Source: Acidobacteriota bacterium (GTDB lineage Bacteria > Acidobacteriota > UBA6911). Taken from it: DNA of 64,000 nucleotides. The stretch is from positions 3,744,001 to 3,808,000 of the forward strand of contig OY761556.1 of the NCBI GenBank assembly GCA_963664705.1. Reading direction: 5' to 3'. The notes below the pieces were generated by a model. It saw only the letters and a program-made list of their open reading frames with translations. It was not told the DNA's origin and searched no databases. Below are positions 16,856-49,881 of the stretch, one piece after another; the first letter of the stretch is position 1; every line of letters begins with the position of its first letter. The position numbers and the translations under genes were made by a program.

Positions 16856-17233
16856 CCGGGAGCGCCGGGGTCTCGCCGGCAAGAGCGTGTCCGCTTCCAC
16901 GGCGCTGATGCCGCCAGCTACCGCTCCCTATTATTTGCCCAAGTAGCAGGTTGGGCGATGCATATCAGCCCCGGAGGGGCGATCAGAAAGTAGCCGGGGG
17001 TGAAGCGCAGCGAACCCCCGGTAGAGATAAGCGCGAGAAAGAGCCCTGAAAGGGCGAAAGATCGGGCATTCTGCCTAAACTTCGGGGCTTGTTACGGGTC
17101 TAATCCAAGCCAGGGTTGAGCGTAGCGAACCCCTGGCTGCTTGCTTTCGGTACTCCGGGCCTGTTGATTCACTCGCGTCGCAGGGCTCAGAACAATTAGT
17201 ATGCAGCATTAGACGGGGCGCCGGTGCTCCCAG
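16856..17233. repeat. Composite REPIN/MITE-like hairpin element, copy 2
   Basis: Outer inverted REP units 16856-16883 and 17212-17233; inner 16962-17233 is a direct repeat of 14901-15175. Confidence 0.85.
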
Positions 17234-17322
17234 TTTCGAACGGCTTCCAGAAACTCGATGATCAATCTATTCGCCGTAAACCTGCAAAGCGGCAGTTTGC
17301 TGCCGCATTCCAAAGGAAGAAT

Positions 17323-20300
17323 ATGAAAAGGACTATTTGCCTACTGTTGACTCTTTGCCTGCTGATGGCAGCCTGTTCCCGAAGTCCGCAAAAATCCGTT
17401 GAACGCGGAAAGCAGTTTCTGCAGGAAAAGAAATACAGCGAAGCGATGATAGAATTCCGGAATGCCCTGAAGGCAGATCCCAAACTAGCCGATGCTCATT
17501 TCCAGATGGGAATGACCTATCTCGCCTTGGGCCACATCTCGGATGCAGGCCCATCCATTATTCAGGCGGCAACACTGGATTCAGGAAACATCGAAGCCCA
17601 GATCCTGGCGGGCTATTTTCTTATTCTCGACCGCAAGTTCGAGGAAGCCACATCAAAAGCCCTGGCCGTTCAAAAAAAGGATTCTCGGAATATACGGGCA
17701 CAAATCCTCCTGGGAAATAGCTATGTGGGGAAAATTGATCTCAATGCGTCCATTGGGGCGTTGAGAAACGCCCTGCTGGTTGAGCCCAAATTTCTGCCGG
17801 CCTTTTTCGTATTTGCCATGCCTCAGGAAGCCAGGCGCGATCCATTGGCAGAAGAAACCCTGAAAAAGACGTGCGATCAGGATGCCGGCTCCATTGAAGC
17901 CAAGCTGGCCCTGGGCAATTTTTATCTCATGTCCAAACGCATGCCGGAAGCAGAACAACAATACCGGGCAGCCCTGGCTTCCAATCCGCGATCGATCGAT
18001 GCCAACCAGGCATTGGCTTTTTGCTTTCTGCAGATGCAGAAACTTGACCAGGCTGAACAGCTTTACGCTCAACTGAAAGACCAGAACCCGCAGGAACCCT
18101 CCCTTGGAATCATGCTCGGCGATTTCTATGCCGGGACCGGTAAAATGGAAACCGCGGTCCGGACATACCAGCAGGTAATGACGGCAAATCCGAAATTTGC
18201 AGTCGCCAAGAGGCGTCTTGCCGGCATTTACCTGTCTCAGAAAAACTTCGATACAGCATCCCAGCTGGCGGGTGAGTTGCTGAAGGAAGATCCGCGGGAC
18301 TTCGAGGCGGGTCTGGTTCAGGGACGTATTCTTCTGATACAGAATAAGCCCGAGGAAGCTGTCAAGCAGCTCGAAAACACAGTCAAGACTGCGCCTCGCT
18401 CTTCGGCGGCGCATTATTTCCTGGGTATTGGCTATTTGCAGATCCGCAATACGCAAAAGGCAGAGCCGGAATTTACAGCGGCAACACGGCTGGATCCGTC
18501 ATTCCTGCAGGCAAAGCTGGCATTGGCGCAGGTAGTGTTGGACAACGGCGATGCGGATGCAGCGATTCGCTATTCACAGGAGGCTCTGACGCAGAATGCC
18601 GGTGCCCTGGATGCAAAGCTGATTTTGGGAAGTGCCTATGCGGTTAAAGGAAACTTCACAGCCGCCATTCCGGAGTTAGAGGAATACGCCAACAAAGTAC
18701 CCGCCAACCCGATCGGACGATATCGCCTCGGAGTGGTTTATCTGAATCAGAAAAATGCGGATAAAGCATTAGCGCAGTTTGAAGCGGCACTGAAAGCAAA
18801 TCCGCTTCATCTGGAAAGCCTTGCAAGCCTTTGCAACATCTATCTGACGCAAAAGGCTCCCGACAAAGCGATCAGCCGGTTGACCCAAACAATTGCCACT
18901 TATCCCAATGTGCCCGAGCTCTATCAACTGCTTGGACGGATATATCTGGCCCAAAACAATACGGCAAAAGCGGAAGAACAGTATCGAAAGGCTGCTTCCG
19001 TTAATTCCAAGAACCCTAATGCCGGCCTGTCTCTGGCAGGCTTTTATTCCACAATCGGCCAGACGGATAAGAGTGTCGTTACGCTGCAAGGCATTTTGAA
19101 GGAAAATCCGGGGAATACGGCTGCAGCTACTGCTTTAGGAGACCTTTACATCTCCCAGAAGGCTTTTGACAAAGCCCTCTCGACTGCAGACGAGATGATC
19201 CAAAAGAATCCCAAGAGCGCGGAGGCATTGACTTTAAAGGGACGAGTTCTCCTGGCTCAAAACAAGCTTCAGGATGCCATCGGCCAATTGCAGAATGCAG
19301 TGAATCTGAACGGCGCTTCACCGGTGGCTCGATATTATCTCGGCATCGCGCAATTGCAGGCCAGGAACCCGCAACGCGCCGAGGCCGAGTTGCAGGAGTC
19401 CGTCAAGACGGCAGGAAGATTTGTTCTCCCCTATGTTGCGCTTGCGACATTGAAGCTTGATTCTGGAGATTCCGACGCGGCCGCGCAACTGGCTCAAAAA
19501 GCGTTGAGTATCAACGCAGCCCTGCCGGATGCAGCCCTGATTCTGGGACAAGCCTATACGGCTAAGCGAGACTATGCCAATGCGTCCAAGATTCTCGAGG
19601 ATCTGGTCAAGCGCTATCCGGACAATGCGGCAGCAATCAAGTCGCTGGCCCAGGCAAACCTCGCCATGGGAAATGCGGTTCAAGCCGCTTCCCTGTTCAG
19701 CAAAATCCTCGAAAAAGATCCGCAGAATGTGGAAGCGCTGACTGGAATGGCCGGCGTGCAGATGATGCAGAACAACCCGGCAAAGGCCGAGGAACTGTAC
19801 CGGAAAGCCGCTCAGCTGGCGCCGCAAAACAGCGGCCCTAAAAAGGGGCTTGCGAGTTTGTACATTCGCCAGAAGGCCTATGATAAGGCATTGCCACTGG
19901 CGGACGAGATCATCAAGATCGGAGATCCGGATGGAAAAACGCTGAAGGCACAGCTTCTCCTTAGCCAAAATAAGGGAGCGGAGGCGGCAAAGGAGCTTCA
20001 ATCAACGGCCGGCACGAAGGGCAACTCCGCGCAATCGCGCTTCATGCTGGGAGCAGCGTACCTTCAGGATAAGAAACCAGCTCAAGCCGAAAGCGAGTGG
20101 AACCAAGCCATTCAAATTGACAACAAGTTTGCCCCCGCCTATTTAGCACTAGCCCAGCTAAAGCTGAATAGCGGAGATCCCGACGCCGCCATTCGCTTTG
20201 CACAGGAGGGGCTGAAGGCCGATGCGTCGATGAACAATCTTCACCTGATCCTCGGCAATGCGCTTGCAAGCAAGGCGGACTTCTCTGGTGCGATCAAGGA

Positions 20301-21102
20301 GCTCGAGGAATATAACCAAAAATCACCCGGCAATCCGCAGGCAATGCACAGCCTGACCTTGGCCTATGTCAACAAATACATGAATGAAAAGAAACCGGAC
20401 AAGGCGATTCAGGTTATAAACCAGCAGGTAGCCAAATCTCCCGGAGCCGATCTTTTCCAGCTTCTAGGACAAGTCTATGTTTATCAGAAAAATTACGCCA
20501 AAGCAGAGGAAGCCTATCGAAAGGCATTATCACTCGACAGGAATAGTCTGGGCGTTTACGGTTTGTTGGGACAGCTTTACATGATTCAGAATTCCGCGGA
20601 TAAGGCAATCCAGGAACTAAAGAATGCACTAAAGGCAAATCCGCGTTCTGTAGAAGCCCACTTGGTTCTTGCGTCAATCTTGGAATCGAAAAACGATCGT
20701 GAAGCCGCGAAATTCCAATACCGCGAAGCGCTAGATGCGGATCCCAAATCGCCTGTAGCTGCAAATAATCTGGCTTGGATACTGGCAGACTCTGGATCCG
20801 ATCTGGACGAGGCTCTGCGCTTGGCCAGAATTGCGTCAGAGAGATTCCCGGATGTCGCCAATATACAGGACACACTGGGATGGGTTTATTATAAGAAGGG
20901 TTCATACAAACCTTCCATTGACATGCTGGAAAGCTGCGTTCGCAAGGATCCAAAGAATGCAGCTTATCAATATCACCTGGGAATGAGCTATTACAAGAAT
21001 GGCAACAGGCCACAAGCCAAGGCCGCCCTGGAACAGGCCTTAAAACTAAGTGCTTCCTTTCCCGGAGTGGAAGAAGCAAAGCAGACGCTGGCAAAGCTTT
21101 AG
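17323..21102 (+). CDS. prsT: PrsT-like TPR lipoprotein 1 (about 1259 aa)
   Basis: ATG 17323 after AAGGAAG; lipobox LMAAC; AMIEFRNALK; tandem TPRs; tail ANNLAW...DTLGWVY. Confidence 0.85.
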   Translation: MKRTICLLLTLCLLMAACSRSPQKSVERGKQFLQEKKYSEAMIEFRNALKADPKLADAHFQMGMTYLALGHISDAGPSIIQAATLDSGNIEAQILAGYFLILDRKFEEATSKALAVQKKDSRNIRAQILLGNSYVGKIDLNASIGALRNALLVEPKFLPAFFVFAMPQEARRDPLAEETLKKTCDQDAGSIEAKLALGNFYLMSKRMPEAEQQYRAALASNPRSIDANQALAFCFLQMQKLDQAEQLYAQLKDQNPQEPSLGIMLGDFYAGTGKMETAVRTYQQVMTANPKFAVAKRRLAGIYLSQKNFDTASQLAGELLKEDPRDFEAGLVQGRILLIQNKPEEAVKQLENTVKTAPRSSAAHYFLGIGYLQIRNTQKAEPEFTAATRLDPSFLQAKLALAQVVLDNGDADAAIRYSQEALTQNAGALDAKLILGSAYAVKGNFTAAIPELEEYANKVPANPIGRYRLGVVYLNQKNADKALAQFEAALKANPLHLESLASLCNIYLTQKAPDKAISRLTQTIATYPNVPELYQLLGRIYLAQNNTAKAEEQYRKAASVNSKNPNAGLSLAGFYSTIGQTDKSVVTLQGILKENPGNTAAATALGDLYISQKAFDKALSTADEMIQKNPKSAEALTLKGRVLLAQNKLQDAIGQLQNAVNLNGASPVARYYLGIAQLQARNPQRAEAELQESVKTAGRFVLPYVALATLKLDSGDSDAAAQLAQKALSINAALPDAALILGQAYTAKRDYANASKILEDLVKRYPDNAAAIKSLAQANLAMGNAVQAASLFSKILEKDPQNVEALTGMAGVQMMQNNPAKAEELYRKAAQLAPQNSGPKKGLASLYIRQKAYDKALPLADEIIKIGDPDGKTLKAQLLLSQNKGAEAAKELQSTAGTKGNSAQSRFMLGAAYLQDKKPAQAESEWNQAIQIDNKFAPAYLALAQLKLNSGDPDAAIRFAQEGLKADASMNNLHLILGNALASKADFSGAIKELEEYNQKSPGNPQAMHSLTLAYVNKYMNEKKPDKAIQVINQQVAKSPGADLFQLLGQVYVYQKNYAKAEEAYRKALSLDRNSLGVYGLLGQLYMIQNSADKAIQELKNALKANPRSVEAHLVLASILESKNDREAAKFQYREALDADPKSPVAANNLAWILADSGSDLDEALRLARIASERFPDVANIQDTLGWVYYKKGSYKPSIDMLESCVRKDPKNAAYQYHLGMSYYKNGNRPQAKAALEQALKLSASFPGVEEAKQTLAKL

Positions 21103-21111
21103 TTAACTGAC

Positions 21112-21165
21112 AGATACACAAATTCCACAGAAACCTTCATGAAGGTCTGTGGAATTTGTGTATCT
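21112..21165. repeat. 54-bp near-perfect palindrome between the two prsT paralogues
   Basis: agatacacaaattccacag-aa-accttcatgaaggt-ctgtggaatttgtgtatct. Confidence 0.9.
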
Positions 21166-21188
21166 AACGCTACTTTGGGGGATCTGAA

Positions 21189-24100
21189 ATGAAACGAATA
21201 TTCCTTTGCCTCATTGCATCCGTCCTTCTTTTGGCTTCATGTTCTCATGATCCCAAGAAATATATTGAAAGCGGGAAGAAATATCTCTCAGAAAAGAAGT
21301 ATAAAGAGGCGGCTCTGGAATTTCGAAATGCGCTCAAACGCGATTCACAGTCAGAAGAGGCTCACTACCAGATGGGCCAGGTTTATTCAGCGGTGGGAGA
21401 CTTCGGAGATGCGCTCCCTGAGTACCAAAGAGTAATCACCACCAATCCAAACCGATTGGATGCCCAACTCAAAGTCGGCAATCTATTGCTTCTCCAGCAT
21501 AGGCTCGCAGATGCACGAGCCAAAGCAGAGACAATTCTAAAGAAACAACCGAAAAATACCCGAGCTCTAATTCTTCAAGCCAATTCGTACTCCGGCTTGA
21601 TACACCTCAATGATTCCATTGAGGAACTGCGTTTATGGTTTGAACGAGAACCCAGACTCGTCCCCTCCTATCTTGACACCGGGGCAGACCAGGAAGCCAA
21701 GCTTCATACGCAGCTTGCCGAGGATATCTACCTGAAGGTCGTGGCTGTGGATGAAGGGTCGGTTGAAGCTCGCCTTGCGCTGGCGAATTACTACATGCAT
21801 CTGAAGCGCAATGAGGAAGCTGAGCAGCAATATCAAAAAGCAGCCGGCATCGACTCTAAATCGCGAGATGCCAATGCGGCGCTCGGGTTCTTTTATCTCC
21901 AGAATAAGAAATACGATCTGGCAGAAAAGTGGTATTCAAAGATCGGAAGTACCCATCCCGACAAAGAGGGAGCCGGGTTTTTGCTGGCGGATTTCTACAT
22001 TGCCTCCGAGCAGATTGATCGTGGGATTGAAGCATATCAAAAGATTCTATCGGCGGACTCAAAGTCAATTCTTGCACGAAAGCGGTTGGCAAATGTCTAT
22101 TTAAGTCAGCGAGCACTCGACAAAGCCATCCAGCAGGCAAATGAAATACTCAAACTGGACGCCAGCAATGCCGAGGCAAAATTTGTAAAGGGAAGAGTTC
22201 TTCTCGCACAAGATAAGCCAACAGAGGCGCTTACGGAGCTTGACAGCGTTGTAAAGTTATTTCCGGCATCGGCATGGGGACACTACTTTATGGGGATCGC
22301 TCTCGTTCGGACGGGCAATACGCAACGCGCGGACGAAGAGATATCTGCCGCAATTCGGCGCGATCCCACCATGGCCGATGCATACATAGCCCGAGCTGAA
22401 ATTAGGCTGGTCTCAGGAGACACCGAAACTTCATTGGCGGATGCCAAACAAGCAATAACTCTCAATGCCAATCTGGATCAAGGCCACCTCATTCTGGGCA
22501 GGGTATACCTTCAGAAAAAAGACTTTCAAAATGCACTGTCTGAATTGGAGGGATTTGCCAAACGAAATCCTTCAAGCGTCGCCGGTTCTCAAGCGCTTGG
22601 TCAGTTGTATGCACTCCAAGGAAAATCGGCTCAAGCTGAAGCTCAGATCGACGCGGCAATCAAAGCAGATCCTTCAAACATTGATACCTGGTCCCTTCTT
22701 GCCAGGTTTTATATCAGCCAAAAGAAACCGGAATCAGCTATTCAAAAGCTGAACCAGGCAATTGCCCTGGCTCCCACACAGGCAAAGCTCTATCAAATTC
22801 TGGGCCAGGTTTATGTTGCACAGAATAACCATGCAAAAGCAGAAGAGGCCTACCAAAAAGCAGCTCAACTGGACTCCAAGAACATCTCACAACAGCTGAA
22901 TCTGGTGAGCTTTTATTCTGGAACGGGCAATCTTGAGAAGAGCATTGAAACGCTTGAAACGATTATTAGAAATCAGCCCAACGACAATTCCGCAAGATTT
23001 ACGCTCGGACAGATTTATCTGGGGCAAAAGGCTTATGACAAAGTAACCGCCATTGCGGACGAAATGCTCAAGAGGGACACAAAGAGCAGCGATGCCCTTT
23101 TGCTGAAGGGGCGGGTTCTACTGGATCATCAAAAACCCAAGGAAGCAATCTCTCCGCTGCAAAATGCGGTTATCGCCAATCCATCCTCATCATCAGCCAG
23201 GTATTATTTGGGAGTTGCGCTATACCAAACAAAGGATGCAAAGCGGGCAGAGATGGAATGGAGCGAGGCTGTCAAAACTGCTGGCCGCTTTGTTCAACCA
23301 TTTATCGCACTCGCCCAACTCAAACTGGACTCAGGCGATACGGATTCAGCGATTCAGTATGCCAAGCAGGCATCCAGCCTGGATCCCACCGCTTCTTCCT
23401 CCAGACTGATACTGGGCAGTGCATACGGCAGCAAGCGAGACTATAAAAATGCTGTTGTAGAGCTCGAGGAATTTACCAAACGCGAACCTCGGAATGCCAT
23501 GGGCTTATATAGACTTGCATTGGCCTATTTGGGTGCCGGCAACCAGGCTCAAGCAGAACTCAAGTTCGAAGCATCGCTTGCGGCCGATCCCAATTCCATG
23601 AATGCGCTGGCGGCGTTGACCCGAATATATCTGGACCAAAAAAAACCTGAGAAAGCGATCCAGCGCTTAAACCAACAACTGAGTCGTACCAATCACCAAC
23701 CGGACATTTATCAGCTGCTTGGGCAGGTTTATGCCTTTCAGAAAGACTATCCCAAAGCAGAAGAGGCCTACCAAAAGGCGGTCCAGGCGGATCCTGGCAA
23801 TGTAACACGCAGAGAGTCCCTGGCAAGCTTCTACACAAGCATCGGCAAACCTGAAAAAAGCATTCAGAACTATGAGGCAATTCTGAAACAAAACCCAGGG
23901 AATGCGGAACTGAAAAAACGACTTGCAGAGCTATATCTGAGCCAAAAGCTCTATGATAAAAGCCTTCAAATCGCGGAAGATATGCTTAAGGCCAATCCTA
24001 AAGATGGCAATGCTTTGCTTGTAAAAGGGAAAATATATCTGGTTTCGAACAAGAATGATCAAGCCGTTGCAGAACTACAAAAGGCCATAGCCAGTAATCC

Positions 24101-25283
24101 TCAATTGGTTGATGCGCGCTACTACCTTGGCATGGCTTATCTACAGAAAAAAAACACCAGCCAGGCAGAGGTAGAATTGAGTGAGGCGATCCGGAAGGAT
24201 AATAAATATTCCCCGGCATTGCTTGGCCTTGCGCGGATCAGATTGGAAAAAAAGGATAATAAAGGAGCGATCCGCTACGCCCAGCAGGCACTGCAGGCAG
24301 ATCCCAATTCGGGAGAAGCCAGACTTTTGCTTGGCGGCGCCCTTTTGGGTGATGCACGCTATAAAGAAGCCCTTGAACAATTGGAAATTGCAGCGAATCT
24401 CAACGCGAACAACTCACGCATTGCCTATATGCTGGGCACGGCAAATGCGGCCTTGGGCGCTGATTCAAAAGCAGAAACAGCTTTTGAATCAGCGCTAAAA
24501 AATGATCCTCAAAATATGGATGCCCTGGCAGGTCTTTCCACCATCTACCTAAAAAACAAAAAGCCGGAAAAAGCACTGCAGCGAATCGAAAAGTACCTTC
24601 AGCAGTTTCCCAATTCTCCCATAGCCTATGAGATTGCGGGACAGGTTTATTCTGCACAAAAAAACTATGCTAAGGCAGAGGAGTCCTATCGTAAGGCACT
24701 TTCTCTCGACAAAAACAGATTTGCGGCCTATTCCTTCCTGGCCAGGCTGTTTCTAAAGCAGAAATCCTATGACAAAGCCATAGCAGAACTGCAGAATAAA
24801 CTAAAATCCGGCCCTGAATCCAGCCAAAGCCATCTGCTTTTGGGGATGATCTATCAAGCCCAAAAGAAAGATGATTTGGCAAAATCCCAATATGCCAGCG
24901 CACTTAAAGTTGATCCAGGCCTGGCAGTGGCAGCCAACAACATGGCTTGGCTGATCTGTGAAACCGGAGGAAACCTGAATGAGGCGCTTGCCTTCGCGCA
25001 AAAAGCCAAAGACGGAATGCCTGATTCGGCAGAAATTGCGGACACACTTGGATGGATATATTTCAAGAAAGGCGCTCACCGCTCTGCCATAGATCTGTTC
25101 AAATTCTGCACTTCAAAGGATCCCAATAACTCTCTGTTCCACTATCATCTTAGCCTGTCGCTTTCTAAAAATGGTGAAAGCGCCAAAGCAAAGGAGTCGA
25201 TGGTCAAAGCAGTGAGTATAGATGCCACTTTGGGCAAAAATTCAGAGGCCAGGCAGATATTGGGATTAGGAGGCACCAAGTGA
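21189..25283 (+). CDS. prsT: PrsT-like TPR lipoprotein 2 (1364 aa)
   Basis: Lipobox LLASC; AALEFRNALK; TPRs; tail ANNMAW...DTLGWIY; paralogue of the upstream gene. Confidence 0.85.
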   Translation: MKRIFLCLIASVLLLASCSHDPKKYIESGKKYLSEKKYKEAALEFRNALKRDSQSEEAHYQMGQVYSAVGDFGDALPEYQRVITTNPNRLDAQLKVGNLLLLQHRLADARAKAETILKKQPKNTRALILQANSYSGLIHLNDSIEELRLWFEREPRLVPSYLDTGADQEAKLHTQLAEDIYLKVVAVDEGSVEARLALANYYMHLKRNEEAEQQYQKAAGIDSKSRDANAALGFFYLQNKKYDLAEKWYSKIGSTHPDKEGAGFLLADFYIASEQIDRGIEAYQKILSADSKSILARKRLANVYLSQRALDKAIQQANEILKLDASNAEAKFVKGRVLLAQDKPTEALTELDSVVKLFPASAWGHYFMGIALVRTGNTQRADEEISAAIRRDPTMADAYIARAEIRLVSGDTETSLADAKQAITLNANLDQGHLILGRVYLQKKDFQNALSELEGFAKRNPSSVAGSQALGQLYALQGKSAQAEAQIDAAIKADPSNIDTWSLLARFYISQKKPESAIQKLNQAIALAPTQAKLYQILGQVYVAQNNHAKAEEAYQKAAQLDSKNISQQLNLVSFYSGTGNLEKSIETLETIIRNQPNDNSARFTLGQIYLGQKAYDKVTAIADEMLKRDTKSSDALLLKGRVLLDHQKPKEAISPLQNAVIANPSSSSARYYLGVALYQTKDAKRAEMEWSEAVKTAGRFVQPFIALAQLKLDSGDTDSAIQYAKQASSLDPTASSSRLILGSAYGSKRDYKNAVVELEEFTKREPRNAMGLYRLALAYLGAGNQAQAELKFEASLAADPNSMNALAALTRIYLDQKKPEKAIQRLNQQLSRTNHQPDIYQLLGQVYAFQKDYPKAEEAYQKAVQADPGNVTRRESLASFYTSIGKPEKSIQNYEAILKQNPGNAELKKRLAELYLSQKLYDKSLQIAEDMLKANPKDGNALLVKGKIYLVSNKNDQAVAELQKAIASNPQLVDARYYLGMAYLQKKNTSQAEVELSEAIRKDNKYSPALLGLARIRLEKKDNKGAIRYAQQALQADPNSGEARLLLGGALLGDARYKEALEQLEIAANLNANNSRIAYMLGTANAALGADSKAETAFESALKNDPQNMDALAGLSTIYLKNKKPEKALQRIEKYLQQFPNSPIAYEIAGQVYSAQKNYAKAEESYRKALSLDKNRFAAYSFLARLFLKQKSYDKAIAELQNKLKSGPESSQSHLLLGMIYQAQKKDDLAKSQYASALKVDPGLAVAANNMAWLICETGGNLNEALAFAQKAKDGMPDSAEIADTLGWIYFKKGAHRSAIDLFKFCTSKDPNNSLFHYHLSLSLSKNGESAKAKESMVKAVSIDATLGKNSEARQILGLGGTK

Positions 25284-26436: not shown

Positions 26437-26920
26437 CTAGAACAGGTTTTTTCTTTTTGCAAAAAGACATAGGCCGGCTAATCCCGTACCCAGAAGCAGC
26501 AGCGAAGCAGGCTCTGGAGAATGGACACCAGGGTAATTCGGATCAGACAGGGCACTCCCATACTGGAAGCTGACATTGGAAATGTCTAAGAGCTGAAATC
26601 CCGTCGGAAGATTGCCTATCGTGAGTATAGCGGAATCCTTGATCAATCCTCCGCTGCCAAGGATATTCCCCTTTGCTCCCGTGCCGCGGTTATCCCCCGC
26701 TGAAAGCAGGCCATAATCCCCGCCGCCTTTCATTCGCTCCATTTGGCGTCCCGGTCAAGCTGTTTTTGTAAGCCCACTCCCCCCCGACAATACCTCCCAC
26801 AGGCTGTCCCTTGCCCAATAATGGATTGCCGACAGAGGTGAAAACAATCCGGAAAAAACTTGTTTTTTCAACAAGAGCATCCCAGTCCCCGTGCTGGAAG
26901 AGCGATGAAAAAGCAACCTA
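26437..26920 (-). pseudogene. Decayed duplicate of PEP-CTERM gene 33890-34696
   Basis: 26431-26728 is nearly identical to 33945-34241; about 80-nt and about 50-nt internal deletions; similarity fades toward the 5' end; keeps SPEP-TM-KRKNLF tail. Left end firm, right end approximate. Confidence 0.88.
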
Positions 26921-27127
26921 ATCTCTGGAAGTTCATTGATGGATTGTCAGTGCTATAGGCGCATTTTTTGAGCGAGATCCATTTCCCAGATCGTTGGCTT
27001 CTCGTTCAATGGCAAGCAGCCGGTTTATTCTATCCATCGTCAAAGGCGATATACTCCAAATTGAAAAATCCTTCCATCGTTTAGAAAATTCGATAACTAT
27101 GGGTTATCATTTGCCGAATATAAATAA

Positions 27128-28912
27128 ATGACAAATAACCATCTTGATTACGCAGAGCTACTTCGGGAATCACGTCTAGCAAATGAATCTGCAGGCTGGC
27201 CTGTCATCCGGCTGGCATTGCTGGGCGATAATGCAGTCCAGCAATTTACGCCATTGCTTCGGGCATTATTCCTTCGCGCAAATATCAAAGCTGAGATTTT
27301 CGAGGGCAGCTTTGACGGATCAGAATTTGAATCGCTGAACAAAGCATCCGCGCTATATGCATTTAAACCTGATTTCGTTGTTATTCTGGACTCAGCACAG
27401 GGCTTACGCGATAAATATTACCAGTCCTCAAATGATTCATTCATGCAAGAAATTTTGGCCAAAACGGTCAGAATTTGGGATGCAATCCACGATAACTGCG
27501 AAGCCCAGATAATCCAAACCAATTATGCCTCCGTAGTTGAACGCATATACGGGAATTATGATTTAAAAGCTCCATCCTCATTAACAAGAATCGTTTCTTC
27601 TCTTAATTGCTCAATTGTGGAAGCGGCTACAGGCCGTCGGCATGTATTATTGCTGGACATCGAAAATCTGGCATCTTGGTTTGGACGAAGAGATTGGTTT
27701 GACGAACGCTTTTGGACGATGTCGAAATCCTTTTGTGCTCCTGAGCTTATGCCACAGGTGGCAAAGAATATCGTGGATATGGTGCTTTCAATGCGGGGCC
27801 GCACGGTGAAATGCGTGATTCTGGATCTGGACAACACGCTTTGGGGGGGAGTGATTGGCGATGAGGGCGTCCACGGAATAAGCATCAGTGCTCATGGTGC
27901 AGGGGAGGATTTCTATCGTTTCCAATGTTTTATGCGTGAACTAAAAAACCGGGGCATTTTGCTCGCCGTTTGCAGCAAAAATGAGTATGCAAACGCTGTT
28001 GCGCCTTTTGAAGAAAACGATTCGATGGTACTAAAGCTGTCCGATATTACGGTTTTTGTGGCAAACTGGGACAATAAAGCTGCCAATATTGAACGCATTC
28101 AGAAAGCACTCAATATTGGTCTCGATTCAATGGTATTCTTGGATGACAATCCTTTCGAACGTAACCTTGTGCGCGAAATGCTTCCCGCAGTAATCGTTCC
28201 CGAGCTTCCGGAGGATCCTTCGGAGTATGTCCGGGCAATCTGTGATCTTAATCTGTTTGAAACCAGTTCGCATTCCATTGAAGACGGACAAAGAACTGAG
28301 TTGTATCGGGTTGAAGCGCAACGAGAGATGGCAAGAGCAGATGCCGCAAGTTTTGAGGATTTTCTGCAATCGCTTAACATGCAGATTAAAATAGGCCGCT
28401 TTACGCAGGAACAGCTACCAAGGATAGTTCAGTTATTGCAGCGGAGCAATCAGTTCAACCTGACCACTCATCGATATACATCAGCGCAGTGTGAATCGAT
28501 GGCGAACGAGCATGAAAACTGTTTGCCCATCATTGCCTCCCTGAACGACCGTTTCGGCGATCATGGGCTTATTTCAATAGTTGTGGCGCGCACTGAGGCC
28601 GAGACGGGAACATTTGTAATAACCGACTGGCTTATGAGCTGCCGCGTACTGAAGCGGGGCGTAGAGCAATACATCATGAATTTTATATTCGAGGAGGCAA
28701 GGGCGCGCGGCTTAGCAATGGTTAGAGGTGAGTACATCCCCACAGCGAAAAATGGAATGGTACGGGATTTTTTTGAACAATTTGGATTTTTGAAGACGCA
28801 TGAAAATGTGGAGGGTCAGTCGATATGGACACTGGATACAAATGCATATTTGCATTCCACCACATTTGTAAAGGCGATAGACAAACCCAGTTCAACAAAT
28901 ATTGAAAAATAG
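27128..28912 (+). CDS. fkbH: FkbH-like HAD-IIIC glyceryl-ACP forming enzyme
   Basis: DLDNTLWGG, CSKN, FLDDNPFER, RSNQFN, DRFGDHG, LMSCRVL. Confidence 0.93.
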   Translation: MTNNHLDYAELLRESRLANESAGWPVIRLALLGDNAVQQFTPLLRALFLRANIKAEIFEGSFDGSEFESLNKASALYAFKPDFVVILDSAQGLRDKYYQSSNDSFMQEILAKTVRIWDAIHDNCEAQIIQTNYASVVERIYGNYDLKAPSSLTRIVSSLNCSIVEAATGRRHVLLLDIENLASWFGRRDWFDERFWTMSKSFCAPELMPQVAKNIVDMVLSMRGRTVKCVILDLDNTLWGGVIGDEGVHGISISAHGAGEDFYRFQCFMRELKNRGILLAVCSKNEYANAVAPFEENDSMVLKLSDITVFVANWDNKAANIERIQKALNIGLDSMVFLDDNPFERNLVREMLPAVIVPELPEDPSEYVRAICDLNLFETSSHSIEDGQRTELYRVEAQREMARADAASFEDFLQSLNMQIKIGRFTQEQLPRIVQLLQRSNQFNLTTHRYTSAQCESMANEHENCLPIIASLNDRFGDHGLISIVVARTEAETGTFVITDWLMSCRVLKRGVEQYIMNFIFEEARARGLAMVRGEYIPTAKNGMVRDFFEQFGFLKTHENVEGQSIWTLDTNAYLHSTTFVKAIDKPSSTNIEK

Positions 28913-28923
28913 GCAATAATCAA

Positions 28924-29169
28924 ATGAATCAAATAGAAATTGAAAAACTGTTGCAGGGAGTTTTCCATAAGGTATTCGATAATCCTGACCTATGCGTGTC
29001 GCCACAAACGACGGCAAGCGATGTCACAGGCTGGGACTCCCTTACACATATAAATCTTATTGTAGCAATCGAAAAGGCTTTTAAGGTTCGATTTACAACG
29101 GCGGAAGTATCCGGAATGCAAAAAGTGGGAGACCTTCTTGTATTAATTGAGCGTAAAACCGGCAAGTGA
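28924..29169 (+). CDS. Acyl carrier protein
   Basis: 81 aa, GWDSL phosphopantetheine Ser motif, directly after fkbH. Confidence 0.93.
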   Translation: MNQIEIEKLLQGVFHKVFDNPDLCVSPQTTASDVTGWDSLTHINLIVAIEKAFKVRFTTAEVSGMQKVGDLLVLIERKTGK

Positions 29170-29182
29170 GAGGATACATTAA

Positions 29183-30601
29183 GTGCCGTTTATTTCGTTG
29201 GCTGGCCTTTTCTTCATAGCTATTACAGCAACTATCTGCTGGATAAGTCCAGTCCGTTACAAACCTGCATTGTTGCTTATCTTTTCCTACGCGTTTTACT
29301 GCACATGGAATGCAGGAATGGCCTTGGTTCTGGGGGCGACAACAGGCATTTGCTATTGGGCGGCTTTGGAAATTGATCGTTTGCGTTCCGCCAACCAAAG
29401 AACGCTCTTGTTCACCGCCACAGTTGGCGCCTTCATTTTATTCATCTGCTTTTTTAAGCTCAGGGTACTACTCACACCTAATGCAGCCCTTGCTGTACCC
29501 TTGGGAATCTCCTACTATACATTCCGACTTATAAGCTACATAGTTGATGTGCATTGGGGTAAGATTCAACCCGAGCGTAGTGCAATTCGCTTTGCCGCGT
29601 TCATCGCCTTCTTTCCTCATTTGGTTGCCGGACCCATTCAGCGCGCGCATGAATTTCTGCCTCAAACATATGCCGACCGGGAAGGTTGGTCACCAAAGCC
29701 GTGGAAAGGTAGCCAGCGCATTCTTCTGGGATTTTTAAAAAAAATTGCCGTTGCAGATACGCTTGCGATGCTGGTTAATTATGGCTTCGCGCATGCAGGT
29801 GAATCATCAGCAGCACCAAGCATGCTGGCATTTTACCTATTTCCGCTTCAACTTTATTTTGATTTCTCGGGGCTGACCGATATCGCTGTTGGCATTGGAT
29901 TGCTATTCGGAATAGAGTCCCCGGAAAATTTCAATCACCCGTTCTCAGCGTCCAACATCTCTGAGTTTTGGCGGCGTTGGCACATAAGCCTTACCGAATG
30001 GCTGCGAGATTATGTTTTCATGCCCCTGCGAATGGCCTTGCGCGAATGGGGAAACTCCGGGCTTGTTATAAGCCTTACTGTCAACATGTTGCTTATAGCG
30101 CTGTGGCATGGTTTCCGAAGTAATTACCTGGTCTTCGGAATAATCCATTCAGCCTATTTAACATTTGACGTCCTATCATTGCCCTATCGCAAGCGATATT
30201 TTAAATCCCATGCCTCCGCAGCCAAAATTGCCGCCATTTTGGGTCCAGTTTTTACTTACAACCTAGTAGCCATCGCGAATATTTTTTTCCGGGCGTCTTC
30301 ATTCGCCGATGGTGCCCATCTGCTCGTCGGGTTGGCGGCAGGATATAAAAACTTCATTGAGGGAATAGCCTTAGCAATGGCCCCGCCCAACGGCCACGCT
30401 TGGGCCGCCTTACCTTTTGCTGCACTTGCCATACTGGGGGACTGGGCCCGAAAACAGTGGCCTGACATGTTATCCCAAATTGAGCCTCGATGGCTTCGTT
30501 GGTCCGCCGGCATGGCAATTGTGGTCTCCACTATCTTTGTGGCACTGATGATGGCGGCCGGCCGCCATGAAGCGAATCCTTTTCTATATGAAAATTTCTA
30601 G
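29183..30601 (+). CDS. MBOAT O-acyltransferase (AlgI/DltB-like) with C-terminal FxYxxF motif
   Basis: PLGISYYTF, FFPHLVAGPI, YFDFSG, FWRRWHISL, catalytic LWHG; ends NPFLYENF; GTG start after GAGGA. Confidence 0.93.
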   Translation: MPFISLAGLFFIAITATICWISPVRYKPALLLIFSYAFYCTWNAGMALVLGATTGICYWAALEIDRLRSANQRTLLFTATVGAFILFICFFKLRVLLTPNAALAVPLGISYYTFRLISYIVDVHWGKIQPERSAIRFAAFIAFFPHLVAGPIQRAHEFLPQTYADREGWSPKPWKGSQRILLGFLKKIAVADTLAMLVNYGFAHAGESSAAPSMLAFYLFPLQLYFDFSGLTDIAVGIGLLFGIESPENFNHPFSASNISEFWRRWHISLTEWLRDYVFMPLRMALREWGNSGLVISLTVNMLLIALWHGFRSNYLVFGIIHSAYLTFDVLSLPYRKRYFKSHASAAKIAAILGPVFTYNLVAIANIFFRASSFADGAHLLVGLAAGYKNFIEGIALAMAPPNGHAWAALPFAALAILGDWARKQWPDMLSQIEPRWLRWSAGMAIVVSTIFVALMMAAGRHEANPFLYENF

Positions 30602-31790
30602 GGATTGCACCCTTGTTTTTGCCGTATGTCTACTCATCATAGGCTTGATTGAACTTAGTATTCGGATATCAGGTCTTAAGTTTGAGCCATCTTTATACGA
30701 GCCCCACCCCATCCTTTATACCGTATTTCGGCCAAATGCCGAGGGTTGGACTAGCGAAGAGGGCGAAAACTATGTTCGTATCAATAGCTTAGGCATGCGG
30801 GACCGCGAGCGCACAGTTCAATCGCAGGCAGGCACCATTCGTCTGGCCCTATTGGGAGACTCAATGGTGGCCGCCCAGCAAGTCCGCTTGGAAGAGACAA
30901 TGGCGCAGGTTATGGAACAGGCACTAGATCGAACTATGAAAGGCTCTGGGCAGGGCCGAGTAGAAGTATTGAATTTTGGAGTCGGCGGGTACGCCTTGTC
31001 GCAAATGTATTTATCGCTTAATGATAGGATTTGGGCATTCCACCCCAATATCATTGCCGTTTTCGTTTCTGGCTTTACAGTACCCAATAGCTATCGAAAG
31101 ACCAAATCTATGGATAACCTGCCGTTTTTTTCCATGAAGGGCACGGACCTAATCCCTGATCCAGAAAACAACCCACCTGAGGAAATTGGCTCGAATAGCA
31201 AATTTTGGCACAAGGTATTTGGCGACCTTCATAACCAGTTCCGTGTACTTCAACTGGTCCGCGCCGCACAGCAAACAGGATGGCAGAAAGCTTTAGCATG
31301 GTCCAAAACCACTCCCTCTACTCAGGAAAAGCCCAAACCTGACGAGTTAATGCGCATATGGCCTTATCTGCCACCGAAAACCTCAGAACTGGCAATGGCT
31401 TGGAATATTACTGAAGCAATCCTGGGCCGCATGATAGCTGAGGCTCGCAAGCATGGTGTTGAATTCTGGCTGATCCAAATTGGCAGTGATATTGACGAAG
31501 ATCCCCGCGAGGCCAAGCGGGAGCAATTTCTTCAAATAAACCATCTTGCCAGTTTTGATTACGCAACACAACGCTACGCGGATTTCGCCGCGCGTCAAGG
31601 AGTATACTTCCTAGATCTTGGCAAGCCTATGCGTGAATACTCGACAGTAACACATACTTCCTTAAGGGGATTCTTCAACACGATTCCCTACAAAGGCCAT
31701 TGGAACGAGTCTGGAAATGCGGCCGCTGCCAACATTGTTAGGAGAGAACTCCTGCAAAGGAGTAGGGTCTTTTCATCGATATTGCATTGA
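30588..31790 (+). CDS. Membrane-anchored SGNH-fold protein (AlgJ/AlgX/DltD-like acyl-transfer partner)
   Basis: N-terminal TM, INSLGMR, LGDSM, NFGVGGY, GHWNESG; overlaps MBOAT stop; alternative start 30567. Confidence 0.8.
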   Translation: MKISRDCTLVFAVCLLIIGLIELSIRISGLKFEPSLYEPHPILYTVFRPNAEGWTSEEGENYVRINSLGMRDRERTVQSQAGTIRLALLGDSMVAAQQVRLEETMAQVMEQALDRTMKGSGQGRVEVLNFGVGGYALSQMYLSLNDRIWAFHPNIIAVFVSGFTVPNSYRKTKSMDNLPFFSMKGTDLIPDPENNPPEEIGSNSKFWHKVFGDLHNQFRVLQLVRAAQQTGWQKALAWSKTTPSTQEKPKPDELMRIWPYLPPKTSELAMAWNITEAILGRMIAEARKHGVEFWLIQIGSDIDEDPREAKREQFLQINHLASFDYATQRYADFAARQGVYFLDLGKPMREYSTVTHTSLRGFFNTIPYKGHWNESGNAAAANIVRRELLQRSRVFSSILH

Positions 31791-32026
31791 ATGTGACGTC
31801 GATCTACTGATCCATCATGATCCTCCCGGCCGATCCTTTTTGATTTATTCGGGTAATCTAAAACCATATCGGCAAAACCAATTGCGGTGAGTCCCGTTCA
31901 CATTATCACTCCCATTTTTTGATCCCCTTTTAGGTTATCAAAATCACGATGACACATGCTTACAAACGGAACGGTACGACCACTCTTTTTGCTGCTATGG
32001 TTCCATTTGGAGCAGCGGAATTCGGG

Positions 32027-32770
32027 CTAGGTCTTGGAAAACACCAGATGGATCCAATTGGCATGCGGGCGCGAACAAAGGCGCTGAATCTCGTTGCTTC
32101 TGGCTGCTAACGAAGAACAGGCTCTGGACCACAGTGTTCTTTGCGCAGGCGGCGAAATCAACTTGGAACCACAGTGAAGGCATGGTTCTTCCTGATCATA
32201 TGTCCCCCATGGATTTCCTGCGAGATCCATGAGAACCGCGGAAAAGCGGTTTGTCCGGGCATTGTTTGTTCCTACAAATGATTTGGAACTAACTGCTAAA
32301 CCATTAAATAGCCTGGCAAGTTGCTCTTCATCAAAGCTGTTGATATGCCCCCACGGCGGATTTGTCTTCCCGCATGTCTGACACGTAGTTCGACAAAAGC
32401 GAATATCCTGTTTAAATGGTACACCTATAACAATTTCACATCTGGCAACTCGCGCAATCTCGCGGCAAGCAAGCTCAAGGTCGCGAATGTGCTCCAATAC
32501 TTCGGTGCAAAACACACAATCGAACGAATTGTCCGGGAATTGAAGGGACGTTACGTCTCCTTGGATCGTAACAACACCAGGATGCGTAAAACTTGGCTTC
32601 TGCAGATCCATGGCGACCACTTCAGTAAAATACTGCTTGAGAAGCACGGAAAAATAGCCATCCCGTGCACCGATATCAAGCACTGAGTGCCGGTTCTTGG
32701 GCACAATACGCAGGAGGTCTGTTGTGCGATGTGTTTCGTTGGCACTGGCACGGTATTGTTCCAGATTCAT
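32027..32770 (-). CDS. Class I SAM-dependent methyltransferase with two CxxC motifs
   Basis: VLDIGARDG, FPDNSFDCVFCTEVLEH; CQTC and CLHC. Confidence 0.85.
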   Translation of the reverse strand: MNLEQYRASANETHRTTDLLRIVPKNRHSVLDIGARDGYFSVLLKQYFTEVVAMDLQKPSFTHPGVVTIQGDVTSLQFPDNSFDCVFCTEVLEHIRDLELACREIARVARCEIVIGVPFKQDIRFCRTTCQTCGKTNPPWGHINSFDEEQLARLFNGLAVSSKSFVGTNNARTNRFSAVLMDLAGNPWGTYDQEEPCLHCGSKLISPPAQRTLWSRACSSLAARSNEIQRLCSRPHANWIHLVFSKT

Positions 32771-32808
32771 CTTGCCTTTATATCCTCACCCGGACTGACA
32801 CCAAACTG

Positions 32809-33852
32809 TTATTGTCTGTGAGCCGCTAGCTCCTGGTTAACCGCTGAAGGATTAACCATACCAAATGCGCCGACAAGCAGACAATTAACCAAAACAGGCA
32901 AAGCCGGAAGCCAATAACGAACCTCCCACCAATAGCCTATAACGCCCAAGAGCATCATATATGGCACCAAGGCTAAGGCAAAGCTTTGCAAAAAACGATT
33001 TGAACGAAATATGCCCTTACAGATAAATACAAAAATTGGACCTATTACCAGAAAGTTAATCCCCGCCGCATAGGTTGCATTTCTAAAATTGCCCGCAATA
33101 GCAGTAGCTACAAAAAAGGTGGAAGGCCTGTATCCAACAACCAAATGCACAATGGCATAGGCCACTACCCATAAAAGCAAGCCTCCCACGGCAAAGCGCA
33201 ATATTTTGCCTGTACGAAGGCTCCTTAATGTAGGCGGCGTGGGAAATGCATAAATAAGAAACCCGAGCGGCAAGTAAACGCTTGTCTCCCGGACGAGTGC
33301 TCCAACAATCATCAACGGCAACAAGAGCCAGTATCGTTTTTGCAACACCAGCCACATTCCGAACACGATCAGCATGGCCTCCCAAAAGGACCATGGATGG
33401 AAGTAGTGGTCGCGGAATGTTAGAAAGATAATGACGGTAGAGAAGACAATTCCGAAAAGTCCGTAGACTGGTTCCCACCATTGACGAATAATCAGGTAGA
33501 GGAAGGCAAGAAAGCCCGCAAATGCAATCCAATTCAGAATCACATAAGCGGTGTTGAATGCGCGCCTTGAATAGTGCTCGCTTCCCTTCGATGGATTGTT
33601 TGCGAGCTCAAAGTGCTGAATAACATGGGCTAAGGTATCGGCGGCAATAGGGATCAGGATTCTGTACCGATATTGATAGGGAGCCTCGCCATTCAGTATG
33701 GCGTTGTGAAGAATATACCGCCTCTCTTCGTTCGGAGCTTCGATTCGCTGCCAATACTCGAAAACCAGAATCGCGGATAGCTGCAAGATCATTGCAATCG
33801 ACAACCAAAAAGTTTTCCTGTTCGAAAAACTCCGGTGCTTAGCTTCTATCAT
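32809..33852 (-). CDS. Polytopic membrane protein, possibly GT-C-like glycan modifier
   Basis: About 9 hydrophobic segments, APYQYRYRILIP loop, LVRET; function inferred. Confidence 0.6.
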   Translation of the reverse strand: MIEAKHRSFSNRKTFWLSIAMILQLSAILVFEYWQRIEAPNEERRYILHNAILNGEAPYQYRYRILIPIAADTLAHVIQHFELANNPSKGSEHYSRRAFNTAYVILNWIAFAGFLAFLYLIIRQWWEPVYGLFGIVFSTVIIFLTFRDHYFHPWSFWEAMLIVFGMWLVLQKRYWLLLPLMIVGALVRETSVYLPLGFLIYAFPTPPTLRSLRTGKILRFAVGGLLLWVVAYAIVHLVVGYRPSTFFVATAIAGNFRNATYAAGINFLVIGPIFVFICKGIFRSNRFLQSFALALVPYMMLLGVIGYWWEVRYWLPALPVLVNCLLVGAFGMVNPSAVNQELAAHRQ

Positions 33853-33889
33853 ATCCGCTCCATGCAGCCAATCCCCTCTTGCCCCTGTG

Positions 33890-34696
33890 TTATTGCTTCT
33901 GTATCTCGTCCCCTAATTCATGCACTCTGACAGCCATCGCCGCTGAAGCACTAGAACAGGTTTTTCTTTTTGCAAAAAGACAAAGGCCGGCTAAACCCGT
34001 ACCCAGAAGCAGCAGCGAAGCAGGCTCAGGAGAATGCACACCGGGGTAATTCGGATCAGACAGGGCACTCCCATACTGGAAGCTGACATTGGAAATGTCT
34101 GAGAGCTGAAATCCCGTCGGAAGATTGCCCATCGTGAAGATAACAGAGTCCTTGATCAATCCTCCACTGCCAAGGATATTCCCCTTTGCTCCCGTGCCGG
34201 GGTTATCCCCCGATGAAAGCAGGCCATAATCCCCGCCGCCTACCGAGTCCGGCCCGGCAAGATTTGAACCGGGAAAGAGATTTGAAGGACCGAAAAGACC
34301 AAAGCCGGCGCTGGCAATCCCTTCATTCGCGCCATTTGGAGCCCCGGCCAAGCCGTTTTTATAAGCCCACTCCCCCCCGACAATACCTCCCACAGGCTGT
34401 CCCTGCGGATCATAAAGCACCGAACTGCCCGGCCCCAACAAGGCCGAGGTCCGGCTCAACAATGGATTGCCGGAAATGTTAAAAAACAGGCCTGTAAGAA
34501 CCTGGGTTTCAACGAGCACATCGCCGGATCCCGTATTCGAGAGTGTCACAAAGAGATTGGATCCCGAAATTGTAAATACCGCCGTAGCTCCCAATCCGCC
34601 GTTAGCAAACTGGTATTTAACGGTATCCGCCATAAGCGGAGCTGCGGTTAATGCCGACAGGAAAACTGCAAAGACAAGAAGTCGAGGCTTCCTCAT
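33890..34696 (-). CDS. PEP-CTERM surface protein (XDD4-like, tentative) with extended C-terminal tail
   Basis: Signal peptide MRKPRLLVFAVF..APLMA; SPEPASLLLLGTGLAGLCLFAKRK followed by an atypical 23-aa tail. Confidence 0.9.
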   Translation of the reverse strand: MRKPRLLVFAVFLSALTAAPLMADTVKYQFANGGLGATAVFTISGSNLFVTLSNTGSGDVLVETQVLTGLFFNISGNPLLSRTSALLGPGSSVLYDPQGQPVGGIVGGEWAYKNGLAGAPNGANEGIASAGFGLFGPSNLFPGSNLAGPDSVGGGDYGLLSSGDNPGTGAKGNILGSGGLIKDSVIFTMGNLPTGFQLSDISNVSFQYGSALSDPNYPGVHSPEPASLLLLGTGLAGLCLFAKRKTCSSASAAMAVRVHELGDEIQKQ

Positions 34697-34841
34697 ATCG
34701 TTCCATCCTTTTTTTGATAACACCTTTCCTATCGGCATCTGCTTTGAATTGAATCACATAGATTGTCTCTGACCCCGGAATATATGGAGATCAGGCAGAA
34801 ATGAAAAATTTGTGGATGGAATTTGAAAAATCTCCCTAAAT

Positions 34842-49735: not shown

Positions 49736-49881
49736 ATATTTCCCCGCTATATTATCGGTCTGAAAGCATGCCATAGTTCCGGAAATTTAATGAGAATTTT
49801 GAACCGGGAGTTCCGTCAAAATTGCATGCGCAGCTTAAAGGACTCGAAGACTTTCAGTCTTTGGGTTATGATCGATAACAA

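Follow-up and report, generated by a model that had tools for sequence, protein, structure and literature searches.

OzmB and Tmn16 are FkbH-type synthases that produce glyceryl-acyl carrier protein (glyceryl-ACP). Enzymes of this type make the glyceryl-loaded carrier from 1,3-bisphosphoglycerate (1,3-BPG) (PMC8949500, PMC7489565, PMC3679948). In a different group of pathways, a membrane-bound O-acyltransferase (MBOAT) is paired with an SGNH-fold protein; the FXYXXF motif has been defined, and a Tyr relay described, for PatA and Dlt (PMC12148441). MBOAT–SGNH pathways other than Dlt have no carrier protein, and PatA uses acetyl-CoA (PMC12148441, 2025). Here, we describe a four-gene operon of an Acidobacteriota bacterium that brings FkbH, ACP, MBOAT and SGNH proteins together. 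The whole 64-kb stretch of DNA analysed (contig OY761556.1, positions 3,744,001-3,808,000) is called the window, and coordinates are positions within it. The intact operon probably encodes a relay, as judged from its sequence, by which D-glyceryl-ACP made by FkbH would be used, via the MBOAT and the SGNH protein, to acylate a surface glycan. The design is a hybrid of a Dlt-like carrier donor, a PatA/AlgI-like fused Tyr shuttle and a loader from polyketide biosynthesis. The operon consists of the following features:

27128-28912, + strand: long-form FkbH (FkbH_N, HAD-IIIC and a C-terminal acyltransferase part), 594 aa, a predicted 1,3-BPG:ACP glyceryl transferase/phosphatase (TIGR01686, PF21211, 3SLR)
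28924-29169, + strand: dedicated ACP, 81 aa, with the predicted phosphopantetheine Ser39 (29038-29040) in GWDSL (weak PF00550 match, WDS conservation)
29183-30601, + strand: MBOAT, 472 aa, GTG start, with a DltB-like core and His309 (30107-30109) (PF03062, TIGR04091, fold)
30581-30598, + strand: acyl-shuttle hexapeptide FLYENF at the C-terminal end of the MBOAT, with Tyr469 at 30587-30589 (sequence)
30567-31790, + strand: membrane-anchored SGNH-fold protein, 407 aa (400 aa from the ATG at 30588) (hydropathy, model, Foldseek)

The operon shares with Dlt a dedicated carrier, the MBOAT His, an FXYXXF Tyr shuttle and a membrane-anchored SGNH protein (PMC12148441). DltB is also the best match to the window MBOAT in both sequence and fold and likewise lacks the PLGG segment discussed below; 12–14 related loci contain a DltX-like open reading frame (ORF). 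Unlike Dlt, the operon has no DltA-type adenylating enzyme. FkbH is its only loader, and the predicted donor group is glyceryl rather than D-Ala; the AMP ligase of the window is an exosortase-A-associated TIGR03098 gene located 17 kb from the operon. Further differences are the fused Tyr motif, an MBOAT score under the DltB cut-off, and the exosortase/exopolysaccharide (EPS) context. Two extra C-terminal helices, a fused Tyr hexapeptide and an anchored SGNH partner are shared with PatA/PatB, AlgI/AlgJ/AlgX and WssH/WssI/WssF, in so far as these are described in the available text. The window operon differs from the PatA/AlgI class in having an ACP and a loader, and in lacking AlgF or a second SGNH gene. 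FkbH, BafAIV and the Mad7/Mad14 synthases have the same HAD motifs, SCR Cys and adjacent stand-alone ACP, and the long FkbH_N form also occurs in FabH-FkbH-ACP operons. In contrast to the loci of these synthases, the window locus has no ketosynthase (KS), FabH or dehydrogenase, and its product is predicted to be exported by the MBOAT instead of being built into a polyketide or tetronate.

An earlier note on this DNA had proposed a compact operon of four genes, and four same-strand ORFs with intact frames were found there. The intergenic gaps are 11 nt (FkbH/ACP) and 13 nt (ACP/MBOAT), and the SGNH gene overlaps the MBOAT gene by 35 nt, or by 14 nt if it begins at the second ATG. All four genes are single-copy in the host genome. 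A single 7,244-nt contig (two runs, one sample) covers positions 26782-34025 with zero differences, which rules out an artefact or misassembly of the block; the sample is possibly the source of the genome itself, so this is assembly support only. Promoter and terminator scans of the locus gave results at chance level.

FkbH matched TIGR01686 with an E-value of 9e-90 (301 bits; cut-off 146.65), residues 28-219 matched PF21211 (E 2e-30), and the solved Bacteroides protein BF1531 (3SLR) was matched with an E-value of 8e-87. The DxDxT motif and the Cys of MSCR, both named in the earlier note, are present as DLDNT at residue 233 (27824-27838) and MSCR at 503 (Cys505 codon 28640-28642), together with SKN at 283 and DDNPFE at 339. 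Among 72 MBOAT-linked FkbH proteins longer than 520 aa, DxDxT was conserved in all 72 and SCR in 70. The SCR Cys presumably carries the acyl group, and we take the role of the Asp, too, to be that known from work on OzmB. The ACP matched PF00550 with an E-value of 1e-3, slightly under the cut-off, and WDS was invariant in all 52 aligned cassette ACPs. No close ACP paralogue was found in the host genome, and an AcpS gene is present elsewhere in it. A polyketide synthase (PKS) extender or tetronate role was ruled out, since no KS, FabH or dehydrogenase partner occurs at the locus or within the window. The statement that no PKS is present is correct for the locus and incorrect for the genome, in which one 2,811-aa multi-ACP synthase is encoded about 2.5 Mb away (KS matches lie at 1.29 and 6.27 Mb, and the operon at 3.77 Mb). 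At residue 33, the FkbH N-terminal domain (27128-27800) reads GDN in place of the GDS of SGNH enzymes; this domain is perhaps an inactive SGNH-like one.

The MBOAT matched PF03062 (E 4e-22) and TIGR04091 (DltB; E 6e-60, yet 203 bits, under the cut-off of 375), and its best solved relative by sequence is DltB (E 2e-33). A structural model (pLDDT 86.6) displayed two extra C-terminal helices followed by a low-confidence tail ending in FLYENF, and a Foldseek search with this model returned DltB (6BUG) as the top match (TM 0.69/0.78). FLYENF comprises residues 467-472 and, as the earlier note had held, is the true C-terminus. His309 (WHG at 308) was conserved in all 134 aligned MBOATs. All 52 aligned MBOATs that bear the motif have Tyr469; these rows were selected for the motif, so the count speaks to position only. 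No second MBOAT was found in the host genome.

The SGNH protein has one N-terminal transmembrane (TM) helix (residues 14-32, by hydropathy). Its model (pLDDT 94.8) was matched by SGNH proteins in Foldseek, and its GDSL family match was below the cut-off. The GDS and GHWN motifs reported earlier lie at residues 97 and 377. Ser99 (codon 30861-30863) and His378 (codon 31698-31700) were invariant in all 71 relatives that were aligned among 120 listed. The partners are diverse, since a profile comparison of two SGNH partner families gave a probability of only 11%. Relatives of the SGNH protein with about 30% identity also occur in a second carrier-fed cassette (L289, L290, L296, L297, L305, L318, L321, L324, L326, L330 and others), which is made up of SGNH, a fatty acyl-AMP-ligase-like enzyme, an ACP-like ORF (IDSL) and an MBOAT ending in QFIYSQF. 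Judging by these genes, it is apparently another Dlt-like system with a different loader.

The proposed relay would proceed as follows. AcpS would prime Ser39 of the ACP, as expected for the family. FkbH would take 3-phosphoglyceryl from 1,3-BPG on Cys505, dephosphorylate it via Asp233 and pass glyceryl to the ACP. By analogy with DltB and PatA, the DltB-like helix 268-285 may then serve as the site at which the loaded ACP docks on the MBOAT from the cytoplasmic side. Through His309, the MBOAT would load Tyr469 in its fused FLYENF tail with the acyl group. Finally, the tail would hand it to Ser99 of the SGNH protein, and a sugar hydroxyl would be esterified outside the inner membrane, as in DltD and PatB.

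The survey of FkbH-ACP-MBOAT-SGNH neighbourhoods suggested in the earlier note revealed FkbH and MBOAT together in 75 loci (L009 was dropped as a near-copy of L004) from at least 8 phyla. Carriers were found in the Pseudomonadota, Acidobacteriota, Bacteroidota, Bacillota, Myxococcota, Planctomycetota, Gemmatimonadota, and Verrucomicrobiota, and an ACP was present in 72 of 74 cassettes. Within the host phylum, 52 of 401 genomes had FkbH over the cut-off, and 60 of the 61 places outside the host genome were fetched; within about 7 kb, an ACP was encoded in 34 of these 60 loci and an MBOAT in 14, each of which also had the ACP. A scan of GTDB, of which the best 80 of 598 loci were taken, gave an ACP in 75 and an MBOAT within about 7–8 kb in 48 loci; this sample is biased, because a cassette FkbH from an alphaproteobacterium headed the query. 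In the genus of genome G428, 42 of 401 genomes were over the FkbH cut-off, and an MBOAT occurred in 10 of 25 fetched full-length loci. Gene order was identical to that of the window operon in the metagenome locus L279, and in L278-L281, the closest four full-length loci from metagenomes, the SGNH gene follows immediately on the sequence encoding the MBOAT C-terminus. Other arrangements are VOC-MBOAT-partner-ACP-FkbH on pSymB of S. meliloti, ACP-FkbH-MBOAT-partner-VOC on a Rhodobacteraceae plasmid, and FkbH-ACP-MBOAT-SGNH-VOC in Sphingomonas. Cultured, non-pathogenic carriers include Sphingomonas rustica and Novosphingobium besides S. meliloti. Co-inheritance of the four genes, and their action as one putative machine, are supported by these sequence comparisons. 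The steps of the relay that can be judged from sequence, namely catalytic residues (Ser and His in the SGNH protein), folds and linkage across phyla, all held.

Two plasmid MBOAT matches proved to be ordinary MBOAT-GDSL or AlgF-type loci without FkbH and were rejected. Also set aside, as another system, were FkbH-like proteins of about 520 aa from the genus of G428, which had no MBOAT in the 15 loci fetched. This divergent protein (L198-L212) occurs in many genomes of the genus, often immediately 5' of an ACP. In L210, the gene that follows the pair resembles what we take to be serine palmitoyltransferase, and a link to sphingolipids is possible. In S. meliloti 1021 (pSymB 631.3-633.0 kb; L009), fkbH is split into two overlapping frames, while it is whole in CP140883 (L004). 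The former strain is possibly a natural mutant for comparison of surface polymers.

The Tyr motif (xYxxF) was fused to the MBOAT end in 59 of the 75 FkbH-MBOAT loci. For 13 of the remaining 16 MBOATs, a nearby same-strand frame ends in a hydrophobic helix plus the motif. A fourteenth such ORF (L052) was visible under a relaxed criterion, and in the last two cases the contig ends within the MBOAT gene. As background, the stricter criterion picked up 2 ORFs across 1.57 Mb of loci devoid of an MBOAT and a single one among the 59 loci with a fused motif. Among the 14 adjacent motif ORFs, 12 are clear DltX-like micro-ORFs and 2 (L103, L154) are possible frameshifted fused genes. Several micro-ORFs measure 34-45 residues from the first Met, like DltX, and the four tested match no NCBIfam model. 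Retention of the motif in cis or in trans is the outcome expected of a working Tyr relay. The DltX-like micro-ORFs located beside short MBOATs in non-Dlt loci are L041:5212-5316, L042:9403-9537, and those of L044, L051, L052, L056, L059, L067, L105, L144, L157, and L170.

FkbH-linked MBOATs were compared with control MBOATs from a draw of 91 genomes chosen regardless of neighbours, in which 60 of 65 places were used (excluded were the places in the host genome and in an unpublished genome, a fragment, and two loci with FkbH that the set contained beforehand). MBOATs were classed as unlinked if no ACP, ligase or FkbH was detected within 6 kb, and ORFs shorter than 360 aa were dropped. The segment P[LIM]GG, located after the conserved WH...Y..P, was present in 36 of 49 unlinked MBOATs, in 1 of 74 FkbH-linked MBOATs and in none of the 11 that are linked to a ligase or ACP. 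The sole FkbH-linked case is the second MBOAT of L156; the related MBOAT that abuts FkbH in this locus has no PLGG. In the model of the window MBOAT, the continuous helix 268-285 replaces this segment, and DltB likewise lacks PLGG at the equivalent helix. This helix of DltB is presumably the docking site of DltC. In a FastTree tree, computed with long-branch warnings, the FkbH-linked label changes 10 times, and at least 6 of these changes are forced by starred branches; the PLGG-less pattern is thus not that of a single inherited clade. A helix like that of DltB, instead of PLGG, is common to the carrier-linked MBOATs, a feature which supports the relay. In a further group of MBOATs (L257, L262, L264, L268, L269, L272-L275, L277), PLGG is replaced by P[IVL][SAT][YF], and no ACP or loader was detected within 6 kb.

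The operon lies within an exosortase-A/PEP-CTERM island that encodes XrtA, EpsI, PrsK, PrsR, two PrsT proteins and the associated AMP ligase, as well as a Wzx flippase, glycosyltransferases and nucleotide-sugar enzymes. Upstream of the window are Wza, Wzz and Wzy-like EPS genes (labelled by N-terminal inspection). The operon has a GC content of 47% against 53% for the genome, which places it in the lowest 1% of equal-sized windows. Direct repeats bracket a low-GC block of about 7.5 kb that contains the operon and two genes convergent to it:

26448-26844, - strand: left direct-repeat copy, the truncated 3' half of an XDD4-family PEP-CTERM gene (repeat identity)
32027-32770, - strand: class I SAM methyltransferase (PF08241, E 9e-17), same block, convergent to the operon
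32809-33852, - strand: 8-TM membrane protein with no Pfam or NCBIfam match, same block, convergent to the operon
33890-34738, - strand: XDD4-family PEP-CTERM gene holding the right repeat copy (NF045504, E 3.5e-63), context outside the relay

The left copy, a pseudogene that is truncated and has lost 80 nt internally, aligns with 33961-34404 over 281 nt (95% identity) and 86 nt (92%); the right copy as a whole spans 33961-34485, and the spacing is about 7.5 kb. Neither the methyltransferase nor the 8-TM protein, for which a GT-C-like transferase is our guess, had a BLAST match among the neighbours of the 75 cassette loci. Among other genomes of the host genus, FkbH was found in 1 of 24 (one draw), and the FkbH loci of two members, G016 and G312, have no MBOAT nearby. 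The low GC, the flanking repeat and the patchy occurrence in the genus together point to an acquired accessory block. The FkbH locus of G016 (L003, C30 5022-10858) encodes an ACP, FkbH, two FabH-like proteins, a second ACP, a short-chain dehydrogenase/reductase (SDR) and a hexapeptide acyltransferase (labels by inspection). It sits in a sugar-aminotransferase locus, and this gene content suggests a putative role in cytoplasmic N-acylation.

Several observations, taken up here together with the explanations that they would favour, weigh against the relay as proposed. The first group concerns the unity of the operon. No MBOAT was found in 46 of the 60 host-phylum FkbH loci, so FkbH and ACP often feed other acceptors. 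Moreover, lack of PLGG cannot serve as a diagnostic mark, given that it extends to 13 of the 49 unlinked MBOATs, and it is only by inference that we assign PLGG to the acyl-CoA type. The four genes might comprise two independent modules, an MBOAT-SGNH pair acting as acetyl-CoA O-acetyltransferase and an FkbH-ACP pair serving cytoplasmic N-acylation of a nucleotide sugar or a small-molecule pathway. FkbH-ACP pairs without MBOAT are indeed common, including those of the FabH/SDR type of G016 and of tetronate-type operons. Fusion of the Tyr motif to the MBOAT is how PatA and AlgI are built, and the FkbH domain and MBOAT of suomilide clusters act in separate steps, according to the text available. 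However, the block contains no N-acyltransferase, FabH or KS gene, the tight adjacency of ACP and MBOAT recurs in unrelated MBOAT clades, and 73 of 74 FkbH-linked MBOATs lack PLGG, including the one abutting FkbH in L156. We regard two independent modules as very improbable.

The SGNH protein departs in some respects from well-known transferases. Its subfamily lacks the Asp three residues before His378 (DxxH), with other conserved acids present, and has no GxND block; its best fold matches are esterases, and PatB (8TLB) appears only at rank 25. Across the 75 loci, an anchored SGNH-like partner was recognised in only 46, by a motif heuristic that misses some known partners and has no background control. 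With non-canonical blocks III and V and esterases heading the fold search, the SGNH protein might be an editing esterase or a scaffold, the MBOAT acylating a membrane intermediate directly, or the acquired block might be silent, for which the low GC and the flanking pseudogene, as signs of recent acquisition, could be cited. That the four frames are intact and the catalytic residues conserved, and that the Tyr shuttle, needed only with a downstream transferase, is retained in cis or in trans, makes such explanations extremely improbable.

The relay might also carry another acyl group. Of 74 cassettes, 39 carry tailoring genes: a VOC protein in 18, a MaoC dehydratase in 18 and a methyltransferase in 16 (12 of these with VOC), with none of the three in 35. 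The closest locus of the same gene order, L279, has two methyltransferases. The product may, therefore, not be plain glyceryl. The VOC protein resembles methylmalonyl-CoA epimerase (TIGR03081, below cut-off), and an SDR is fused or adjacent in 16 of the 18 MaoC cassettes (by inspection). VOC and MaoC never occur together in the 74 cassettes (Fisher p 0.004, a value overstated by the non-independence of related loci). Tailoring of this kind makes sense solely for a hydroxy acid bound to a carrier and so speaks for a C3 thioester cargo. The acyl group of the window operon could be O-methylated glyceryl, L-glyceryl formed by epimerisation, lactyl formed by dehydration and reduction, or glyceryl that keeps its 3-phosphate. 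Besides the counts given above, the MaoC genes of L160, the nearest tree neighbour of the MBOAT, favour an altered group, as do the L279 methyltransferases and the methyltransferase at 32027-32770 within the same block. The operon itself, however, is without VOC, MaoC or methyltransferase genes. MaoC seeds found no match in the host genome at E<1e-6, and the SDR and VOC matches are generic (27–30% identity). The window methyltransferase lies on the opposite strand and, as noted, is unmatched among cassette neighbours; the intact HAD DxDxT argues for dephosphorylation. With no tailoring gene in the operon and none specific in the genome, plain D-glyceryl is the best guess from sequence for its cargo, and an altered acyl group is unlikely. 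An O-methyl form is kept open by the convergent methyltransferase and those of L279.

Going by genomic context, D-glyceryl would most likely be passed to the EPS (Wzx/Wzy type) of the exosortase-A island, or else to glycans attached to PEP-CTERM proteins. The PEP-CTERM connection drawn in the earlier note is borne out in so far as the host island contains PEP-CTERM genes; it is weakened by the patchiness of the module in the genus and its recurrence in other contexts. With no glycan genes beside the S. meliloti cassette and no cassette found in the other host-genus genomes searched, context does not single out an acceptor. The same relay might act on a non-polysaccharide acceptor, such as a glycolipid or phospholipid head group, lipopolysaccharide, or PEP-CTERM proteins. 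In line with this, the block is inserted in a PEP-CTERM gene array and is bounded by a duplicated PEP-CTERM fragment, and a Paroceanicella FkbH-ACP locus without MBOAT adjoins mprF; the isolated position of the S. meliloti cassette fits as well. Yet the characterised MBOAT-SGNH pairs in the available text of PMC12148441 all act on cell-envelope polymers. The Wzx and glycosyltransferases of the island, the Wza/Wzz/Wzy-like genes upstream, and the occurrence of some cassettes beside GT4 and Wzy genes also speak for a polysaccharide. We consider a non-polysaccharide acceptor distinctly unlikely.

Glyceroyl groups on bacterial glycans are known. Gellan, the EPS of Sphingomonas elodea, carries O-linked L-glycerate, and this glycerate ester controls gel texture (PMC9104527); in a 2015 review, only one of the gellan acyl genes was verified, an acetyltransferase (PMC4443731). 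The gene responsible for N-glyceroyl on nonulosonic acids was called elusive (PMC6120980, PMC5378307). The flagellar glycosylation locus of C. jejuni contains cj1302 (fkbH) and cj1301 (epimerase) (PMC7099621), and dimethylglyceric acid was found on flagellin of the same strain (PMC5378307). An fkbH-domain gene thus stands beside an annotated epimerase gene in a glycan locus, and glyceric-acid derivatives decorate flagellin; we infer a link between cj1302 and this substituent. The C. jejuni system differs in being an N-acylation of nonulosonic acid that is presumably cytoplasmic. With gellan, the proposed relay shares O-glycerate on a Wzx/Wzy-type EPS; gellan, however, contains the L form, whereas the window operon has no epimerase. 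A further point against extending the relay to gellan is that no named gellan producer was seen among 120 of 160 listed homologues of the Sphingomonas-type partner, 11 of which carried organism names. A link of the cassette to gellan glycerate is not established.

No description of an FkbH-ACP-MBOAT-SGNH cassette was found in the literature searched, whose coverage excluded most subscription papers. FkbH and MBOAT appeared together only in work on aeruginosin/suomilide, as far as the available text goes, and the accessible portions of PMC11340318 and PMC8892547 do not describe the cassette. The cassette would be a variant of Dlt/Pat-type acylation, and the mechanism of each part is known. It is conceivable, with the balance tilted slightly against it, that FkbH-ACP-MBOAT-SGNH constitutes a large undescribed family of carrier-fed envelope acylation that taps glycolysis and writes a C3-ester code on surface glycans, including the gellan glyceryl transferase. 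In such a code, D-glyceryl may be the minimal form, L-glyceryl may be added with VOC, O-methyl-glyceryl with a methyltransferase, and lactyl with MaoC/SDR. PLGG versus helix may mark CoA-fed versus carrier-fed MBOATs, the shuttle being fused as in PatA or split as in DltX, and the VOC-bearing member may be the missing gellan glyceryl transferase.

If true, the relay would represent a second carrier-fed MBOAT-SGNH class beside Dlt, and its loader would be of a kind described until now in assembly lines for polyketides and peptides. It also provides candidate genes for glyceroyl groups on bacterial glycans, both the N-glyceroyl groups and those of gellan (PMC6120980, PMC5378307, PMC4443731). These questions are approachable with soluble FkbH and ACP and with cultured hosts such as S. 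meliloti and Sphingomonas. Given the role of the glycerate ester in gellan texture (PMC9104527), cassette genes could be useful in polymer engineering, and the PLGG/helix correlate together with the micro-ORFs could improve the annotation of thousands of MBOATs.

Two other features of the island were recorded. A second ACP-based module (genome C1 3739545-3739799 plus window 8382-11242 and 47867-49774) comprises an ACP, the exosortase-A-associated AMP ligase (TIGR03098), a PLP decarboxylase and amidotransferases. The two tandem PrsT-family TPR proteins (17224-25283) are unusually long, with 1,292 and 1,364 aa against a model of 899 positions.

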